From Myxococcota bacterium (GTDB taxonomy: Bacteria > Myxococcota_A > SURF-8), in assembly GCA_965140415.1 (NCBI GenBank), contig OZ223209.1:416001-480000 (forward strand): a stretch of DNA of 64,000 nucleotides. The letters are read 5' to 3'. Position numbers and translations under genes: made by a program. Shown one piece after another: positions 46,554 to 56,096 of the stretch. The notes under the pieces were generated by a model that had not been told where the DNA came from, ran no database searches, and worked only from the letters and a program-made list of their open reading frames with translations. Positions within the stretch are counted from its first letter, which is position 1. Each line of letters begins with the position of its first letter.

Positions 46554-49500
46554 TTAGTAGCAGTAGTTGCTCAGCTCGGTATAGCTTTCAGAGTAGCACT
46601 GGGCGCAGAGGATCTGCCCTGTCGTGCCGTTCTTTGCACCGGCGCTGACTTGGGACGAACCGAAATAAATGTGCGTGGAGGGCCCACCCGCGCTAGCCGT
46701 AATGGCGCTCTGGTTCCCGTACAACACCGAATGATCAATGTACAAGTTGTAGGCAACGCCAACAATAGAACTCTGATTGGATACAAGCATAGACTGATCG
46801 CCAGAACTGTCGTTGCTCAATTTACTTCCGCGAATGCTTCCCTTGGCCGTTTCAATCATGCGGAAAGTGTGAGCGGTGTATGAGGAACACTCGTATAGTT
46901 CAATTTCACTGTCCGTAACGGTCGTGCTGATACCGTTATTGCTCAACACGCCCACGGCGGTGGCGTTCATATCACCGCGCACCTTGATTCGACTATTGCG
47001 TATGGATACTTCGGCGATATAGGCGTAAATGCCGTATTGAGCAGTGGTCGTATCCGATCCAAGCACGGAAATGGTACTGTCCACCATTTCCAGAATCATA
47101 TTCTCGGAAGTTCCGCCATTGCCTTCGATGGTGATGCCGTAGTGAGAGGCATCATCGCCGGTGACCGTAATGGAAACATGATCCAGCATCAGGCTTCCGG
47201 CCATCGAAGCAACCGTGTGAGTAATTCCACGGCAATTGCCTGCATTTCCGGTTTCGATGGAAACATACAGTAAGGAGGGTGAAACGCCCTCGCTGTAAAA
47301 TGCGGTTGCGAACGTGCCTCCACCGCGATTCTTGATGCTTAAGTGGCGCAGTTGCGAGTTATTGTTTCCTACAATGGTTCCGGCATTGACACCGCTATGG
47401 CTGTCGGACGTAATGAAGGTCATGCCCTGACCCGAACCTTCGATGTCTACGTATTGCTGCATGTACAGGCTGGCGTTCTGTAGATCGAATTCACCGGGTC
47501 CGATTTTAACCAGATATGGCGAAGTTGCGGATGCTCCGGTAATACCATTGACAGTATTGAGCAGCCGTTCTCCGTCGGCGGCGCTGTCACCGGTGGAATA
47601 AACATGAATCGTTTGGGAATACTCAGCCAGCATTCGGAATTTCGCACCGCCATCGTTACTGACTTCGAAGCGATCCGCTCCCGAGCTGTAACGCAGGATG
47701 CCGTCCGGGCTTATACCCTGCTTGGCGACGATCCAGACATCGGTGTCGTTGGTGTCGTCACCTACGGTCAGATCCTGCCCGACCACCATGCTACCGTCCG
47801 TTTGAAGTGTGCTGCTCATCGGTGAATAAAGGTTCGTACCACCGATAGTCATTTCAAAACCGCTGCCGCTTACATTCGGGAAACTGACGCTACCGGCATT
47901 TACGGTAAAGAGATCGCTGGAAGAGATACCCAAACTGGCATCGCCTTGTACTTCCAAGGTGGAGAGGGTCGCTCCTGCCGGAGTCGTTGCGCCGATTTCC
48001 GTATTGTCGATCGAGCCGCCACTAATGGTCAAGTTGTCCGCCACTTCGTTATCCGCCCAGGGATAAGTCGTGTTAACCCAGTTTCCGGTCAAGGTCTCCG
48101 CCGCCGTGATATCCGGTCCGACGCTATCGATACCGCATTCCCAAGCAGTCGAACTGATGTTCCACTTGAGCACGTAGCCATCTTCGCAGCTTGAGAGCAG
48201 ACCGAAATCCGTGCCGCTCATTTCCAGACCGCGATTGGTTAAAACATCATACGTAGTATCATCGTCCACGCCGTCGGAGAAACCGCTGGGAACGCTTTGC
48301 AATTCGCTCCAACTATGACCATGATCGCTGCGGGAAGCCTGGGTACTGGTACCGTCGCTATCGAAATTCACGGCCAAGCTCAGATCGCCGCTCGTGCCGC
48401 CGCCGGTCAAGCCGTCTCCGGCCGTCACGCCGGTCACATCGCCGCTGGTGGGCGCATAGGTTTCACAGATCCAGCTCGATCCGGAAAACTTCAGAATGGA
48501 GTTGGCCGAACAGCTTTTGATCAAACCGATCATGTTGCTGCCATCGATTTCGATACCGTTCGTTACATCGCCGCTGTAGATGGTATCATTGTCCACGCCA
48601 TCAGCAAAGCCGCTGGGGATGGTCTGAATTTCACTCCAGTCGTGCAGGTGGTCACTGCGAGACACCTGTGTGCTGCTGCCATTGGTATCGAAATTCACAG
48701 CCAGGTTCAAATCGCCGCTCGTGCCGCCTCCGGTCAAGCCGTTTCCGGCAGTCACGCCGGTCACGTCGCCACTACCGACCTCGTCGATACGGCATTCCCA
48801 AAACGATCCCGACTGATCCCATTTCAATATGTAGCCGTCATCGCAGGTGGAGAGCAGACCAAACTGGGTGCCATTCATTTCCAAGCCGCGATTGGTCTGC
48901 ACGCTATAGGTGGTATCGTTGTCCACGCCATCGGAGAAGCCGCTGGGAATACTTTGCAATTCACTCCAATCGTGTTGATGGTCGCTGCGGGCAACCTGGC
49001 TGCTGGAACCGTCGCTGTCGAAGTCTACCGCCAATGAAACACTCCCCGCATCACCACCGCCGGTCAGACCCGTACTTGCGATAACGTCAGTGATGTCCCC
49101 GCTCGATGTGGTGTAGGGTTCACAGATCCAACTTGTTCCGGTGTATTTTAGCACGGATTCGGGCGAGCAGCTTTTGATCAGACTGATCGCGTTACTGCCG
49201 TCGATTTCGATACCGTTCGTCGCATCGCCGCTGTAGGTGGTGTCGTCGTCCACGCCGTCGACAAAACCGCTGGGGATGCTTTGCAATTCGCTCCAGTCGT
49301 GTAGATGGTCGCTGCGGGAAACCTGCGTACTGCTGCCATCACCATCGAAATTCACCGCCAGACTCAAATCACCACTCGTACCGCCACCGGTCAAGCCGTC
49401 GCCCGCCGTTACGCCGGTAACATCGCCAGTGCCGCTTTCATCGGGGGCACAGATCCAAGCCGGGATTTCCGAATCCCATTTCAGCACTTCGCCTCTTCCA

Positions 49501-50930
49501 CAGGTCGAAAGTAAGCCGAAGTCATTACCGGTTATTTCCAGACCGCGATTAGTCTGAACGCCATAGGTGGTATCGTTGTCCAGATCTGTTGCGCAATACC
49601 AGGTACTGCCGCCGAGATCCCATTTTAAGACCTGACCGTCTGTGCAGCCAGGCAGCAGACCAACCTGGGTACCATCGAAATACAACCCGCCGCCTGTGGT
49701 GGCGCTGTAAAGTGTGTCGGCATCGGTATCGCAGTTCCAGAGCTGACTGGTATCGTTCCAGCGCAGCACGTTGCCTTCGTTGCAGTTGCCGACCAGTCCG
49801 ATTTCCGTACCGCTGACTTCGATGCCTCGTCCGCTCATGGCGCTGTAGGTCGTGCCGGTGGTATCGATCAGGACGCAGTCCCACTGCTGTTCGAGCGCAT
49901 TCCAGGCCAAGACCTGATCCGCGCCGCAGTCGGTGCGTAAGCCGATTTCATTGGCGCTGATAACCATGCCGCCGCCGGTGGCGGGATTGTATTGCGTATC
50001 GGCATCGGTGGAACATTCCCAGTTTTGGTTGGTGTTGTTCCAGCGTAGAATCTCGCCATCGGCGCAGGTGGCGATCAAACCGATTTCCGTACCGCTCACT
50101 TCAATACCGCGATCGATCATCGCCGTGTATACGGTGCTCGATCCGCCGATGGTCGTACATTCCCAACCCGATAAGGCGGCATTCCAATGCAATACCTGCG
50201 TATCGCTGCATTGGGTCGATAGGCTGATGGTGCCATTGGCGATTTCCAAGCCGCTGCCCGCAACGGCGCTGTACTGAGTGTCGTCGTCGACGCCGTCGGC
50301 AAAGCCTTCCGGGATCTGCTGGATTTCGCTCCAGAGATGGCTGTGAGTCGATTCGGAAAATCCTTCCAGGCGCGTATCGATTTCGGTTTCGGTGTAATAC
50401 AGATCGTCGTGATCGTGGGTGACGGGAGGAAATTCCTCTGGTTTATCCGTGATTTCATCCCAGGCGTGATCATGTCCGGCAAAACTGAAGGCGTCCGCTT
50501 CCATGCCTTGAATACTCTGTGCATCGCCAGCCGAAAGGGCGTAAGGCACCGACGTAACCCGGAGTTTTCCCGGCAGCAGCAGATCTTCATCGACCAGATA
50601 AACCTGGAAAGCCAAGGCGCGACCTGCATTTTGCGTCAGAATCGGCGCTAATGAACCAGGAGTCTGATTGCCACTGACGCCCAATTCCACGCTGAGCCAG
50701 CCATCGAGCGTTTCTACATCGGCAAACGTTTCCGTCCATAGTACAGTATCGGTATCGCCGGTTTCAAGCAGGCGAACTTCCACCCCACCCTGATAGGAGA
50801 ACCCCGCATCGCCGTCGAATATGCGCGCGGAAAGTTGCACCGAGGTCGGTGGAGCCGCCTGGACCATAGGCAGCCACAACACGATCAGGGCCAGAATGAT
50901 GAAAAGTCGAATTGTTGAAGTCAGGGACAT
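46554..50930 (-). CDS. Large secreted repeat fibre/adhesin-like protein (1458 aa)
   Basis: Signal peptide; LWTET...SVELG...SVPYAL N-domain; HDHDDLYYTETEID; 10 C-x(3-4)-VLxW-x(n)-WxC units; 4 GDVTGVTAGDGLTGGG units; C-terminal beta-helix-like region (YLVKIGPGEF). Confidence 0.8.
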   Translation of the reverse strand: MSLTSTIRLFIILALIVLWLPMVQAAPPTSVQLSARIFDGDAGFSYQGGVEVRLLETGDTDTVLWTETFADVETLDGWLSVELGVSGNQTPGSLAPILTQNAGRALAFQVYLVDEDLLLPGKLRVTSVPYALSAGDAQSIQGMEADAFSFAGHDHAWDEITDKPEEFPPVTHDHDDLYYTETEIDTRLEGFSESTHSHLWSEIQQIPEGFADGVDDDTQYSAVAGSGLEIANGTISLSTQCSDTQVLHWNAALSGWECTTIGGSSTVYTAMIDRGIEVSGTEIGLIATCADGEILRWNNTNQNWECSTDADTQYNPATGGGMVISANEIGLRTDCGADQVLAWNALEQQWDCVLIDTTGTTYSAMSGRGIEVSGTEIGLVGNCNEGNVLRWNDTSQLWNCDTDADTLYSATTGGGLYFDGTQVGLLPGCTDGQVLKWDLGGSTWYCATDLDNDTTYGVQTNRGLEITGNDFGLLSTCGRGEVLKWDSEIPAWICAPDESGTGDVTGVTAGDGLTGGGTSGDLSLAVNFDGDGSSTQVSRSDHLHDWSELQSIPSGFVDGVDDDTTYSGDATNGIEIDGSNAISLIKSCSPESVLKYTGTSWICEPYTTSSGDITDVIASTGLTGGGDAGSVSLAVDFDSDGSSSQVARSDHQHDWSELQSIPSGFSDGVDNDTTYSVQTNRGLEMNGTQFGLLSTCDDGYILKWDQSGSFWECRIDEVGSGDVTGVTAGNGLTGGGTSGDLNLAVNFDTNGSSTQVSRSDHLHDWSEIQTIPSGFADGVDNDTIYSGDVTNGIEIDGSNMIGLIKSCSANSILKFSGSSWICETYAPTSGDVTGVTAGDGLTGGGTSGDLSLAVNFDSDGTSTQASRSDHGHSWSELQSVPSGFSDGVDDDTTYDVLTNRGLEMSGTDFGLLSSCEDGYVLKWNISSTAWECGIDSVGPDITAAETLTGNWVNTTYPWADNEVADNLTISGGSIDNTEIGATTPAGATLSTLEVQGDASLGISSSDLFTVNAGSVSFPNVSGSGFEMTIGGTNLYSPMSSTLQTDGSMVVGQDLTVGDDTNDTDVWIVAKQGISPDGILRYSSGADRFEVSNDGGAKFRMLAEYSQTIHVYSTGDSAADGERLLNTVNGITGASATSPYLVKIGPGEFDLQNASLYMQQYVDIEGSGQGMTFITSDSHSGVNAGTIVGNNNSQLRHLSIKNRGGGTFATAFYSEGVSPSLLYVSIETGNAGNCRGITHTVASMAGSLMLDHVSITVTGDDASHYGITIEGNGGTSENMILEMVDSTISVLGSDTTTAQYGIYAYIAEVSIRNSRIKVRGDMNATAVGVLSNNGISTTVTDSEIELYECSSYTAHTFRMIETAKGSIRGSKLSNDSSGDQSMLVSNQSSIVGVAYNLYIDHSVLYGNQSAITASAGGPSTHIYFGSSQVSAGAKNGTTGQILCAQCYSESYTELSNYCY
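48150..49581 (-). repeat. 657-bp period tandem duplication within fibre gene
   Basis: Equivalent DxDTTYxVxTNRGLE codons near 49552, 48895 and 48238. Confidence 0.85.
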
Positions 50931-50944
50931 GAGCTTCCTCCTGC

Positions 50945-52096
50945 TTATCGACCGATTAGACCGTCAGCCGTAGGGCCAAGGGTCATGCGTGTTTGTAGGT
51001 TCGCTCCGCTTACGAGCGCGGTAGGATACAGAAAAGCGGGTTGCACCCGAAAATCCAGCGGTGTGGTGTCCGTATCCGGATCGGAATCGACATCGAGATC
51101 CTGATCGCCATCGCTTTCCGGCGCGACTTCCTCATCGAGATCGGAGTCGCCCCCTTGATCCCCATCGGGAAGAACCACCGTTCCACCGATTACAATGCTC
51201 CAGCCTCGATACAGACCGACCGTTCCATCTTCCGTTTTCAGGGCAAACATGAAGGTGACGACATCTCCGGCAGAGAGTTTTTCGGCATCCAGTGTGCCTT
51301 CAACGCGCATCACACGGCCTTTGTCGGTATCGATCAGTGAGCCTTCGACATCGAAGTAGCTGGTGCTGTTGGGCAAGGTCATGATGGCGCTGATAATCGG
51401 AGTGGAACCCTGATAATCGGTGAATAGATCGATGGTAAACGTATTTCCGGGCAGTAACAGGTCCGGGCCCTCGATTTTCTTGATCTGGGCGGCGGTGTCG
51501 CTGCCGCTGCCGCGCGGAGCCTCTTCGTTGATCAAGGTGGCATTGTCGCCAAAAGCGACGGTATCGACTGGCTCGCTCAATTCCTGCGGAGGCTCATCGG
51601 GAATGGCGAAGTTGGTAGGCCGATACAAACCCGTGCGGCCATCGCTGGTCTGTAGTGCGAAATTAAGGGTGAACGACATGCCTTGCAATGTCGGATCCCC
51701 CTTCAGGGTTCCGAACAGGGTCACCAGATTTTCGAACAATGCTGCCGGAACCGCGATATAGCCGCTGGCTCCAACGACCTGCACGATGACTTTATCTACC
51801 TTTTCCGGTTGTTCGAAGGCGCTGGAAATGCCGACGGAAAACGAGGCTCCCAGCCGGAAGCTGTCCGGACCGTTGATTACGACGATCTGAGGCGCACCGG
51901 AACCGGCTTCACCTTTGGGAGGCTGACTGTCTTCATATTCGCCGTCTTCGAATTCGAGTGCGTCGGTCAATCGGTCGGCCAGCTCGCCGGCCAACTCTCC
52001 GGCGTCGGTGCCGGAATGGCAGGAGGATAGCCACAACGCGGGAAGCAGCAGAAAAAGAACCGGCAACATCGGCGCGAGTGAGCGAGATGTAGTCAT
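50945..52096 (-). CDS. Lipoprotein, paralogue of the N-terminal half of 44019-46352
   Basis: LSSC lipobox; ELADRLTDALxF shared with 44019 gene; internal duplicated PQI...FALxTxDG..GLY domain. Confidence 0.85.
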   Translation of the reverse strand: MTTSRSLAPMLPVLFLLLPALWLSSCHSGTDAGELAGELADRLTDALEFEDGEYEDSQPPKGEAGSGAPQIVVINGPDSFRLGASFSVGISSAFEQPEKVDKVIVQVVGASGYIAVPAALFENLVTLFGTLKGDPTLQGMSFTLNFALQTSDGRTGLYRPTNFAIPDEPPQELSEPVDTVAFGDNATLINEEAPRGSGSDTAAQIKKIEGPDLLLPGNTFTIDLFTDYQGSTPIISAIMTLPNSTSYFDVEGSLIDTDKGRVMRVEGTLDAEKLSAGDVVTFMFALKTEDGTVGLYRGWSIVIGGTVVLPDGDQGGDSDLDEEVAPESDGDQDLDVDSDPDTDTTPLDFRVQPAFLYPTALVSGANLQTRMTLGPTADGLIGR

Positions 52097-52354
52097 ATCA
52101 TCTTCCGTTCGATTGCGAGGGAAACGCGTCCATACCTGAACGAGTTCCCATCGATCATCGTTTCATTTCACGTTACAGAGGAACTACCCACCTATTAAAA
52201 TAGCATGAAACCCCAATCTCTTCAACTTTAGATCGAAAAAGAGGGTCGATTATTCAAACCTATTTATCACAATAATATCAAATACATACAATCATCTTGC
52301 ACAATGTCGGCAGAAAGCGGCTAGTGCTTTTGTAAGCATCGGGTCGCTAAAGTC

Positions 52355-52384
52355 TTGACAGGGCAAATCGTTCTTGCCTATCCT
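52355..52384 (+). promoter_or_regulatory. sigma70 promoter
   Basis: TTGACA-18bp-TATCCT; predicted start site ~52390. Confidence 0.6.
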
Positions 52385-52388
52385 ATAG

Positions 52389-52561
52389 ACAACTGGAGAT
52401 ATTCGCCACCAGTGAACCGGTGGGTCCGCATATGCATATGCGGGAGGCTTCTGAAAAACAGTGGAGGGGCGGTGAGTCGGTCGGGTTGCTCGCAAATCAT
52501 GCCGCGAGTAATTCGACTGAGTGTGTTGATCGACTGGCGGATGTGAGTGGTAATCAGTTGT
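52389..52561 (+). ncRNA. Candidate structured RNA / 5' leader (unassigned)
   Basis: Closing stems ACAACTG/CAGTTGT and ATATTCGCCA/TGGCGGATGT; internal hairpins 52426-52443 and 52480-52517 with G-U pairs. Confidence 0.5.
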
Positions 52562-52578
52562 TGAAAGGATCTCGTACG

Positions 52579-52821
52579 ATGAAATGGAACGGAATGCCGC
52601 CACGCAACCCTGCGCGCTATAATACGGTTGACAGCGGGGTAAAGTGCCCGACCTGCGGAGAAGGGTCTCTTTACCCGCTTTTCAGTTGTTTGGAATCTCA
52701 TTTTGTCTGTTCGAATTGCGACGAGCGTTTCAGCCTGGAATCCTTGGTGTTCAAGCTTTCCGACAGCGACTTCGATTCTTTGGCAGATCTTGTCGGACAT
52801 CGCTATTGCGACCGAATCTGA
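52579..52821 (+). CDS. Small dual-CxxC zinc-ribbon-like protein (80 aa)
   Basis: RBS AAGGA; CPTC...FSC...CSNC...CDRI. Confidence 0.75.
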   Translation: MKWNGMPPRNPARYNTVDSGVKCPTCGEGSLYPLFSCLESHFVCSNCDERFSLESLVFKLSDSDFDSLADLVGHRYCDRI

Positions 52822-52942
52822 ACGAAACGAGATGGATTGACTCGATACCACGCGACGGTTGAGCCACGGTCGTCGCAGCCCGGACAGGGCAATACTGTAC
52901 ATCGAACGGAAACAACAAGCTTGGTTGGGAAAGGAGTGTCCA

Positions 52943-53620
52943 ATGCTTTCCACGAAAGGATTGTGGGCGTGTCTCGTATTGGCGTCGCTGGTGGTGGTAG
53001 GCTGTGACTCCTCGGACTGTGGCGACTGTATCGGGGATGGTGATAACGCGTTGTGCGAAGAAGGCGACAAGGGTTGCGACGATAGCTGGCGGACTGTCTG
53101 CATCGAGGGCGCCTTTGAACGCATCGAAGATTGCGATATCGTTAATGAAGCGTGCCAGGACGGCTTTTGCGTACCGTATGCTACCGATGGCGATGGCATT
53201 GCCGATGGAGACACGACCGATGGCGACAGCACCGTTGATGGCGATGTGGCGGACGGTGACAAGGTGGATGGCGATACTGTGGTCGACGGCGATAATCAGC
53301 CCGATGGCGACATGGAAAACGATGGCGATGTTGTGGTCGATGGTGATGTAACCGATGGTGATGTAACCGACGGCGACATGGATATGGTCGATGGAGATAG
53401 CCCAGTGGACGGCGATGCTCCCGATGGCGATATCATCGACGGAGATATCATCGATGGCGATATGGAAGCCGATGGCGATACACCAATTGATGGCGATGTC
53501 ATTGACGGAGACATGGACGGTGATGCAATCGACGGTGACAGTCCGGTAGATGGCGATGTGGACGGCGATTGCGATCTGGAAGATTGTGAAGCGGAAGGGG
53601 AAGTCGTAGCGGCGGAATAG
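52943..53620 (+). CDS. Lipoprotein: short Cys-rich domain + 24 DGD repeats
   Basis: RBS AAGGAG, lipobox VVGC, 24 DGD motifs counted. Confidence 0.85.
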   Translation: MLSTKGLWACLVLASLVVVGCDSSDCGDCIGDGDNALCEEGDKGCDDSWRTVCIEGAFERIEDCDIVNEACQDGFCVPYATDGDGIADGDTTDGDSTVDGDVADGDKVDGDTVVDGDNQPDGDMENDGDVVVDGDVTDGDVTDGDMDMVDGDSPVDGDAPDGDIIDGDIIDGDMEADGDTPIDGDVIDGDMDGDAIDGDSPVDGDVDGDCDLEDCEAEGEVVAAE

Positions 53621-53698: not shown

Positions 53699-53717
53699 GT
53701 CTGTTCAGATTCGACGG

Positions 53718-53830
53718 GTGGCATTGGCCAAGCGAAGAGAAACGGAGCTTGCCCATGTGGCTCCTTAACACGGGCAAGCCTGCGGCTTAGCCCGCGCCAC
53801 CCTAAAATCAGACAGGTTTGCAACTTCTTG
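53718..53830 (-). repeat. REPIN-like element copy B
   Basis: Inverted copy of 42500-42612. Confidence 0.88.
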
Positions 53831-53946: not shown

Positions 53947-55800
53947 ATGAGTCCCGCATCGAACACAAACGGAAGTCAAAAGCAGATACGCAATGTCGCC
54001 ATCATTGCTCACGTCGATCACGGTAAAACCACCCTGGTTGACCGTATGCTGGAGCAGTGCGGCACCTTGAAACGCAGCGAAGTCGGCATCGACCGCGCCA
54101 TGGATTCCAACAGCCTGGAACGCGAGCGCGGCATCACGATCTTGTCCAAATGCACGGCGATGGAATTTCGCGATCTGCACGTCAACGTAGTCGATACGCC
54201 CGGTCATGCGGATTTCGGCGGTGAAGTCGAACGCGTGATGCGCATGGTGGATTCGGTGCTGCTGTTGGTGGATGCCTTTGAAGGTCCGATGCCGCAAACG
54301 CGCTTCGTCACCCAGAAAGCGCTGGCGCGTGGATTGAAACCGATTCTGGTCATCAACAAAATCGACCGTGAAGGCGCAGACCCGGAAGGAGCCGTCAACG
54401 AAGTTTTCGATCTCTTCGTTTCGTTGGACGCCAACGACGAGCAACTGGATTTTCCCATCATCTACGCCTCGGCCAAGCAGGGATACGCCATCAATGAGTT
54501 GGATGACGAACCTAATGATTTGACTCCACTTTTCGAGCTGATCGCCAAAGAAGTACCGCCGCCGGAAGTCGAAGAGGGTGAAAGTCCGGCCATGCAGGTC
54601 TCCACTTTCGATCACGACGATTACCTGGGCGCAATGGCGACCGGGCGTGTGGTCAGTGGATGCTTTAAGCGTGGTGAAATGGTGCTGCTGGTTCATCGCG
54701 ACGGTTCCCACGAAGAATTCCGTATTACCCGTATTCTGGGTTTCCACGGTCTGCATCGCTTCGATATGGATGAAGCAATCGCGGGCAACATCGTTACCAT
54801 CACCGGCATGAGCGAACTGAATGTCGGTGAAACCATTACAAGTATCGAGAATCCCAGGATATTGCCGCTGCTGAAAATCGATGCACCTACCGTGTCGATG
54901 GCTTTTCGCGCCAACACCGGACCCTTTTCCGGTAAGGAAGGCAAGTATGTCACAAGCCAGAATCTGAAAGCGCGGCTGGAAAAGGAAATCCGCTCCAATG
55001 TGTCTCTGCGCGTGGAACCGACGGATCAGGCGGACACCTTTATCGTCAGTGGTCGCGGCGAGTTGCACCTGGCGGTGCTGATCGAAACGATGCGCCGCGA
55101 AGGGTACGAATTCATGGTGGCGCGTCCCGAAGTGGTGCTGCAATACGATGAAAACGGCCATAAGCAGGAGCCGTACGAGTCGCTGGTGGCGGATGTAGAC
55201 GCCGAGCATTCCGGTGTTGTGATCGATGCGCTTAACCGACGTGGCGGACGCATGCTGGGCATGCGCGAAATGCGTTCCGGGCGCACCCGGCTGGATTACG
55301 TCGTCCCCACGCGCGGCCTGATCGGCTACCGCTCGCAATTCATGACCGACACGCGCGGCATGGGCATTTTGAGCCACGTCTTTCTGGAATACGGCGAATT
55401 TCTGGGACCGATGCGCGGACGTCAGAACGGCGCTCTGGTCGTACAGGATACCTGCACGACGGTCACCTTCGGTCTGTGGAAATTGCAGGATCGCGGCGTC
55501 TTTTTCGTGACTGCCGGAGAAACGGTGTATGAAGGTCAGGTGATCGGCGAGCGCAATCGCAGCGGCGATATCGTCATCAATCCCGGGAAAGAGAAGAAAC
55601 TCACGAACATGCGCGCCTCCGCCTCCGATGAAAAAAACTGGCTCAAGCCGCATCGCGTCTTGTCGATTGAGGAAGCCATCGAATTCATCAACGATGACGA
55701 GTACGTGGAGTTCACGCCCGAATCCATCCGCATCCGCAAGCGCTATTTGGATTTCAACGACCGCAAGCGCCTGGAGCGCCGCGAAGCGAAAGAACAATAA
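53947..55800 (+). CDS. typA: Translational GTPase TypA/BipA
   Basis: [48 protein letters not shown]. Confidence 0.98.
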
Positions 55801-55890: not shown

Positions 55891-55969
55891 AGGCTCCGTT
55901 ACATTCGGTTCTTAGTTGATTTTAGCTGAGTTAGAGAAATTACTAGTCATCATTAGCGATATCTTCTTT

Positions 55970-56096
55970 TAGCGGCGAGGCGTAAGCCCGCCGTTTTCAA
56001 GATGTTTTTCGGTGGGCGGCATGGGCGAAGCGAAGGGAAACGGAGCTTGCCCATGTGCTTTTGAACACGGGCAGGCAGGCTCACGCCTCGCCGCTA
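55970..56096. repeat. Composite REP element copy C
   Basis: 19-bp terminal inverted repeats TAGCGGCGAGGCGTRAGCC enclosing a ~60-bp core shared with copies A and B. Confidence 0.82.

Follow-up and report, generated by a model that had tools for sequence, protein, structure and literature searches.

A candidate structured 5' leader upstream of a small zinc-ribbon protein gene in an uncultured Myxococcota bacterium

Within the window, the whole 64,000-nt stretch of DNA that was analysed, a candidate structured RNA element of about 175 nt lies directly upstream of a small zinc-binding protein gene, on the + strand, in an uncultured Myxococcota. The element sits in a 482-nt gap between two divergent genes, a lipoprotein-like gene on the - strand (start at 52096) and an 80-aa gene on the + strand (52579-52821). 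A sequence-only reading had proposed an unassigned RNA here, running from a predicted start site to a ribosome binding site (RBS), and all of the sequences that it quoted were found where it had placed them. The features on which our analysis draws are the following.

52355-52384, + strand: candidate sigma-70-like promoter (TTGACA at 52355-52360, an 18-nt spacer, and TATCCT at 52379-52384)
52380-52384, + strand: AUCCU in the -10 hexamer, predicted to pair with AGGAU at 52566-52570 (probability 0.94)
52388-52396, + strand: 5' strand of the closing helix P1, GACAACUGG, predicted to form 9 bp with 52554-52562 (probability 0.94)
52399-52408, + strand: 5' strand of a second predicted long-range helix (52400-52404 with 52545-52549 in the MFE structure; alternatively 52399-52408 with 52535-52544)
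52406-52423, + strand: predicted hairpin 1, CCACC/GGUGG with an 8-nt loop (probability 0.64)
52425-52444, + strand: predicted hairpin 2, 8 bp with a UGCA loop, on the 18-nt palindrome CCGCATATGCATATGCGG (probability 0.87)
52477-52520, + strand: predicted hairpin 3, 17 bp with four G-U pairs and a 10-nt loop (probability 1.0)
52528-52535, + strand: GAUCGACU, alternative partner of 52475-52482 (from a sequence check and an enforced fold)
52554-52562, + strand: 3' strand of P1 (from the MFE structure and a mean pair probability of 0.94)
52565-52570, + strand: Shine-Dalgarno sequence AAGGAU, separated from the ATG by 8 nt (52571-52578)
52579-52821, + strand: gene for an 80-aa dual-CxxC zinc-ribbon protein, on which the leader would act

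Several other features surround this locus. The neighbour at 52943-53620 encodes an Asp/Gly-rich secreted protein with 'DGD' repeats, for which only weak Bactofilin/MSCRAMM-like repeat matches were obtained, and the neighbour at 46554-50930 encodes a 1458-aa repeat protein with no convincing family match. The typA gene (53947-55800) is flanked by copies of a palindromic MITE/ERIC-like repeat at 53717-53810 and 55945-56010 (arms to ~56197). These copies have 84% and 87% column identity, respectively, to G000:C1:322465-322660, and both strands fold strongly.

At its 5' end, the element is preceded by a promoter-like site. A scan of 51900-53100 recovered three promoter-like sites, versus 0.9 +/- 0.9 in shuffles, and the TTGACA/TATCCT site is the best of them (10/12 matches); the other upstream candidates reach 9/12 matches only and lie in AT-rich DNA. 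The sequence-only reading had placed +1 near 52390. While the promoter-like site itself is borne out, the canonical +1 for the TATCCT -10 hexamer would be at about A52391 (range 52389-52393), which falls within the closing helix. At the 3' end, the RBS directly follows the structure, as had been claimed: the closing helix ends 2 nt from AAGGA (52565-52569) and 16 nt from the ATG at 52579. The same scan yielded no terminator-like sites (1.3 expected), including none between the structure and the ATG. At the level of sequence, the element therefore lies between a promoter-like site and an RBS, on the strand of the gene, with no terminator between. Two roles had been suggested for it, a cis-regulatory RNA or an sRNA. 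Because the element adjoins the RBS without a terminator-like site before it, the leader is favoured over the sRNA.

Folding predictions assign three robust helices to the element, the 9-bp closing helix (0.94), the palindrome hairpin (0.87) and the 17-bp hairpin (1.0), and leave the interior ambiguous. The closing helix arises from ACAACTG at 52389-52395, which is complementary to CAGTTGT at 52555-52561 and extends to 9 bp in the MFE structure (52388-52396 with 52554-52562). The other long-range helix proposed earlier, ATATTCGCCA with TGGCGGATGT, is real in that 10 bp can form, including two G-U pairs, but the MFE structure prefers to pair 52400-52404 with 52545-52549, and enforcing the ATATTCGCCA/TGGCGGATGT helix costs 1.8 kcal/mol (-68.1 vs -69.9 kcal/mol). 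Within the domain, the 18-nt palindrome at 52426-52443 is also real and folds as an 8-bp hairpin, and the stem previously given as 14 bp is present, but with a length of 17 bp (52477-52493 with 52504-52520). A competing helix between 52475-52482 and 52528-52535 exists as described. It pairs the base of hairpin 3 in a shifted register, TCGACTG being present twice, and the fold in which it is enforced is 4.2 kcal/mol costlier than the MFE structure (-65.7 vs -69.9 kcal/mol). In longer transcripts, an extra hairpin (GCGGCUA GUGCUU UUGU AAGCAU .. GGGUCGC) at 52316-52348, just 5' of the -35 hexamer, forms part of the MFE structure.

For 52386-52566, the predicted folding energy of the + strand is -70.4 kcal/mol (z -4.03), and none of 200 dinucleotide shuffles folded equally well, while the - strand of the same segment reaches -46.2 kcal/mol (z -2.96). 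As a background, we folded both strands of all 181-nt segments of the window, taken in 40-nt steps, and corrected the energies for GC content (n=3192). In this ranking the + strand of the element is 13th (residual -19.0) and the - strand is 2554th (residual +5.2). This asymmetry arises because 14 of the 65 predicted pairs are G-U, and the earlier statement that the G-U pairing works on the + strand only therefore stands. The feature is real, strand-specific and strongly folding.

Yet the exceptional fold depends upon where the RNA begins. From the canonical +1 at A52391, the predicted energy is -66.3 kcal/mol with a z score of -1.88, 7 of 200 shuffles are equally good, and the closing helix is absent from the MFE structure. 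This is an ordinary fold, and the predicted promoter therefore overlaps with the exceptional structure instead of abutting it. The overlap can be traced to an inverted repeat that the sequence-only reading missed. It had the RNA start at the predicted start site, which is approximately correct, but the repeat reaches further upstream, across the -10 hexamer, where it pairs with the RBS. The repeat (52380-52395/52555-52570) has 16-nt arms that are 81% complementary and spans ~191 nt overall, so that the closing helix reaches 9 nt upstream of the predicted +1. The AUCCU/AGGAU pairing between the -10 hexamer and the Shine-Dalgarno sequence is predicted to form across a 3x3 internal loop. Thus, AUCCU would be the anti-Shine-Dalgarno strand in any transcript starting further upstream. 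For RNAs that begin at 52378 or further upstream, pairing of the Shine-Dalgarno sequence is predicted (probability unpaired ~0), in a fold of -76.9 kcal/mol (z -3.53) that was equalled by 1 of 200 shuffles. When the RNA is started at 52390, the Shine-Dalgarno residues G52567 and G52568 are free (probability unpaired ~0.9). The overlap between structure and promoter could be read in three ways: transcripts may start further upstream, where only the 9/12 promoter candidates are found; long and short transcripts may both exist; or the terminal repeat may be a relic at the level of the DNA.

The element was also compared to known RNA families. Rfam 15 contains no family match for it, either at gathering scores or at E<=10, in agreement with the earlier failure to recognise a known riboswitch. 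Across the whole window, the two matches at gathering scores are both tRNAs, and the three at E<=10 in 52100-52950 (E 5.4-6.9) are to eukaryotic miRNA/lncRNA models, scoring 10.7-17 bits against cut-offs of 48-95. 6S RNA and a multicopy repeat were two identities that the sequence-only reading had itself raised against a new RNA, and the element is neither. The 6S model (RF00013, gathering threshold 46.4 bits) has no match in 52100-52950 even at E<=10, and the only 6S match of the genome, at G000:C1:1786401-1786581, is a true 6S RNA elsewhere that scores 73.8 bits over the full model length. The element resembles 6S RNA in being ~180 nt long with its 5' and 3' ends paired as a closing stem. 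It differs in having a branched, multi-hairpin interior and in abutting an RBS, whereas 6S RNA is a rod with a central bubble. In the 5.98-Mb genome the element is single copy: BLAST returned one match, the element itself, and a covariance model built from its single sequence (R1) likewise recovered the element only. The palindrome was considered as a recurring operator and rejected, with 17 genome matches at <=2 mismatches against 17 for a control pattern.

The protein encoded downstream belongs to a very sparse family. Its best Pfam match is Sina_RING, at 25.9 bits and below the cut-off of 29.3, and the closest curated model is NCBIfam NF041197, 'dual CXXC motif small (seleno)protein', at 23.1 bits and below the cut-off of 40. 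An AF2 model (pLDDT 72.1) shows a zinc ribbon followed by a C-terminal helix. Foldseek searches of the PDB with this model gave no match at E<=0.001, the best being the N-terminal domain of MqsA (E 0.14). Of the nine other genomes in the order, four encode homologues (37-44% identity). A motif at the C-terminus, DFxxLxxxVxxR[FY]xxR[IV], is conserved. The Atlas holds unnamed clusters only for this protein, and a search of 5.8 billion proteins by shared words, a method limited by shared words and length, gave no candidate for the 80-aa query.

None of the four dual-CxxC homologue genes has the element upstream, and they share neither sequence nor architecture with it in their leaders. These leaders have hairpins of their own with no common architecture, and promoter guesses put their lengths at ~52 to ~193 nt. 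R1 gave no match at E<=1 in 60 related genomes, and with filters off, its best match at the four homologue loci was a 22-nt hairpin (11.2 bits). BLAST of 52340-52830 against 40 relatives found nothing above noise in another genome (best match 30 nt, E 0.047). A DNA pattern on hairpin 3 matched neither metagenome contigs nor genome contigs. When the search was guided by the protein, none of 337 pattern matches in metagenome contigs was confirmed, and genome contigs returned the same four Myxococcota MAG loci together with one 16-residue Flavobacterium match, which was disregarded. Among the papers listed for Myxococcus dRNA-seq, TSS and sRNA, none was relevant. No divergent homologue was found in these searches, and among the sequences searched the element is an orphan, single-genome candidate.

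Near-identical copies do occur in metagenomes. Five public runs contain part of the stretch, none of them recorded as an RNA run; four were compared with the window, and two contigs from two other studies carry the element at ~92-94% identity. The first, X4, comes from a wastewater metagenome (depth 2), covers 52434-52572 and has 8 differences; the second, X5, comes from an algae metagenome (depth 2.8), covers 52309-52483 and has 10 differences and one gap. For X5, no difference is listed in the promoter-like segment 52342-52388. Among the differences listed, which are those away from contig ends, nine fall inside the RNA. Five of these are in unpaired positions (one in the loop of hairpin 1, two at the apex of the palindrome hairpin and two in the loop of hairpin 3), three preserve pairing, and one disrupts hairpin 3 at its terminal pair. 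In X5, A52389G keeps a P1 pair by converting A-U to G-U, T52400C converts U-G to C-G in either version of the second helix, C52417A lies in the loop of hairpin 1, and hairpin 2 has one substitution and a 1-nt deletion, both at its apex. In X4, a loose end suggests that G replaces TAT in hairpin 2, again at the apex alone, and hairpin 3 is changed at two loop positions, at one pair (G-C to G-U) and at the terminal pair, which is broken. When the same base changes were placed at random in the same intervals, the mean number of disruptive changes was 3.94, and one or none occurred in 2.5% of 1000 sets; a version of the permutation test based on MFE energy was not significant (fraction 0.248). It is suggestive that the changes in these two thin contigs, of depth 2-2.8, are mostly structure-compatible. 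Because indels alter the centre of the palindrome in both contigs while the base of the stem is kept, an RNA hairpin fits better than a DNA operator, and the indels at 52431-52436 in these relatives also argue against coding. The changes lie mostly in loops, with no sign of a conserved pocket in the two partial contigs, and there is no indication of a ligand-binding riboswitch.

Based upon these observations, the reading that we tentatively favour, and to which we give not quite an even chance, is that the element would be a lineage-specific, cis-acting structured 5' leader of the zinc-ribbon mRNA that controls ribosome access or mRNA stability. For such a leader, transcription, the position of the 5' end and any regulatory output are inferred. 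In this leader, three hairpins would be enclosed by long-range helices, the outermost of which adjoins the RBS, and the closing helix would decide ribosome loading. In transcripts that include 52380-52384, the helix would be extended by AUCCU/AGGAU and the Shine-Dalgarno sequence buried, while transcripts from TTGACA/TATCCT (+1 at ~52389-52392) would leave it free. In such short transcripts, the base-paired 5' end might mainly protect the mRNA from decay that depends on the 5' end. A counterpoint to the leader is that the homologous genes manage without the element.

Two kinds of known leader offer precedents for these activities. Shine-Dalgarno-sequestering 5' leaders include translational riboswitch platforms, the long rpoS-type leader and RNA thermometers. 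The element is like them in that a long-range helix closes a multi-hairpin domain before the start codon, and its extended form is predicted to pair the Shine-Dalgarno sequence. It differs in that no conserved ligand pocket or family emerged from the Rfam and homologue searches, and in that a transcript would have to begin before the one strong promoter-like site for sequestration to occur. The second kind are 5'-terminal stabiliser stem-loops of the ompA 5' UTR type. An RNA started at ~52389 would similarly have its 5' end immediately paired and its Shine-Dalgarno sequence free; however, the element is far larger and more complex, and its terminal helix is marginal with +1 at A52391. A bolder version of the leader, which we regard as a long shot, is that the element could represent a new class of cis-regulatory RNA restricted to an uncultured Myxococcota lineage and controlling a metal-binding dual-CxxC mini-protein, in which one hexamer would be both the -10 element of an internal promoter and the source of the anti-Shine-Dalgarno strand. 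Long transcripts from an upstream promoter would then be locked by the closing helix unless it is opened by RNase III, by a ligand or by a protein, for which the zinc-ribbon product itself is one candidate, and those begun at the internal promoter could be translated constitutively.

The structure could have arisen in other ways. The element might be a decayed, solitary palindromic insertion of the MITE/ERIC-like kind in the zinc-ribbon leader, carrying -10-like and RBS-like ends, in which case the hairpins would be a legacy of the DNA element. Such an origin is unlikely, but several points speak for it: palindromic intergenic repeat copies are present in the same window, at ~53717-53810 and ~55945-56010, the element is bounded by the 16-nt imperfect inverted repeat, and homologous genes without the element are what an insertion would leave elsewhere. 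Like it, the repeats of this genome are intergenic and 160-190 nt long, end in inverted repeats and fold into several hairpins, and the copies lie just 1.1 and 3.4 kb downstream. Yet the element is single copy and folds on one strand (residuals -19.0/+5.2), whereas the repeats fold about equally on both (-32.5/-24.0 and -20.2/-20.2). It has no sequence similarity to them beyond word matches of 8-12 nt and no clear target-site duplication, and it is kept in two other metagenomes with mostly structure-compatible changes. The strong strand asymmetry also speaks against the suggestion that there is no RNA function at all, and that we are looking at a chance fold of a long intergenic region, or at an 18-bp palindrome that serves as the DNA operator of a repressor. 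We consider this quite unlikely. An orphan sequence whose rank of 13 out of 3192 in the window is not extreme would be compatible with chance, and a perfect 18-bp palindrome at ~+37 to +54 of the predicted transcript with an operator, but 0 of 200 shuffles fold equally well, the palindrome is no more recurrent in the genome than its control (17 matches each), and X4 and X5 both change the spacing of the half-sites while keeping the stem base.

A stand-alone sRNA of ~175 nt, transcribed from TTGACA/TATCCT and released by processing or factor-dependent termination, would account for the promoter-like site directly upstream, for a compact closed domain with paired ends and for the strand-specific fold. 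Nevertheless, we find it improbable given that 51900-53100 has no intrinsic terminator and that the helix ends so close to AAGGA (2 nt) and the ATG (16 nt); in addition, nothing similar occurs elsewhere in the genome or its relatives, and there is no 6S match in a genome that already has a 6S RNA. Finally, the region could encode an N-terminal extension of the zinc-ribbon protein beginning at GTG 52420 (133 aa), as there is an in-frame ORF at 52420-52821 and this frame stays open over the 76 codons that precede the ATG. This is hardly credible. The alignment with homologues does not begin until about residue 8 of the 80-aa protein, and in two of these homologues no more than 8-9 codons are open ahead of the aligned start codon. 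The 53-aa extension has no Pfam match, nor did any of the three reading frames across the element (0/3). The 1-nt deletion in X5 and the net 2-nt change in X4 at 52431-52436 would shift the frame, and AAGGA stands 9 nt before the ATG at 52579.

If the cis-acting leader is real, then it would be a further structured regulatory leader, from an uncultured part of the Myxococcota that has hardly been studied, and would provide a first handle on an uncharacterised family of small zinc-ribbon proteins. Were the overlap between the -10 hexamer and the anti-Shine-Dalgarno to prove true, promoter choice would set translational competence. For now the element is not a discovery; its value is that of a well-defined target on which to map 5' ends and run reporter assays.

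One of the public runs, X2, which is a sister sample from the probable source study, breaks within the element. No contig of this run spans 52534-52567, which holds the 3' strand of the closing helices and the start of the RBS, and the flanking contigs (at 52533 and 52568) continue into unlike sequence. A 29-nt tail on one of them matches the - strand of G000:C1:2880051-2880079, although the genome goes on there with other sequence, and the other loose end is absent from the genome at <=3 mismatches. An insertion or a rearrangement could explain the break, as could a contig artefact.
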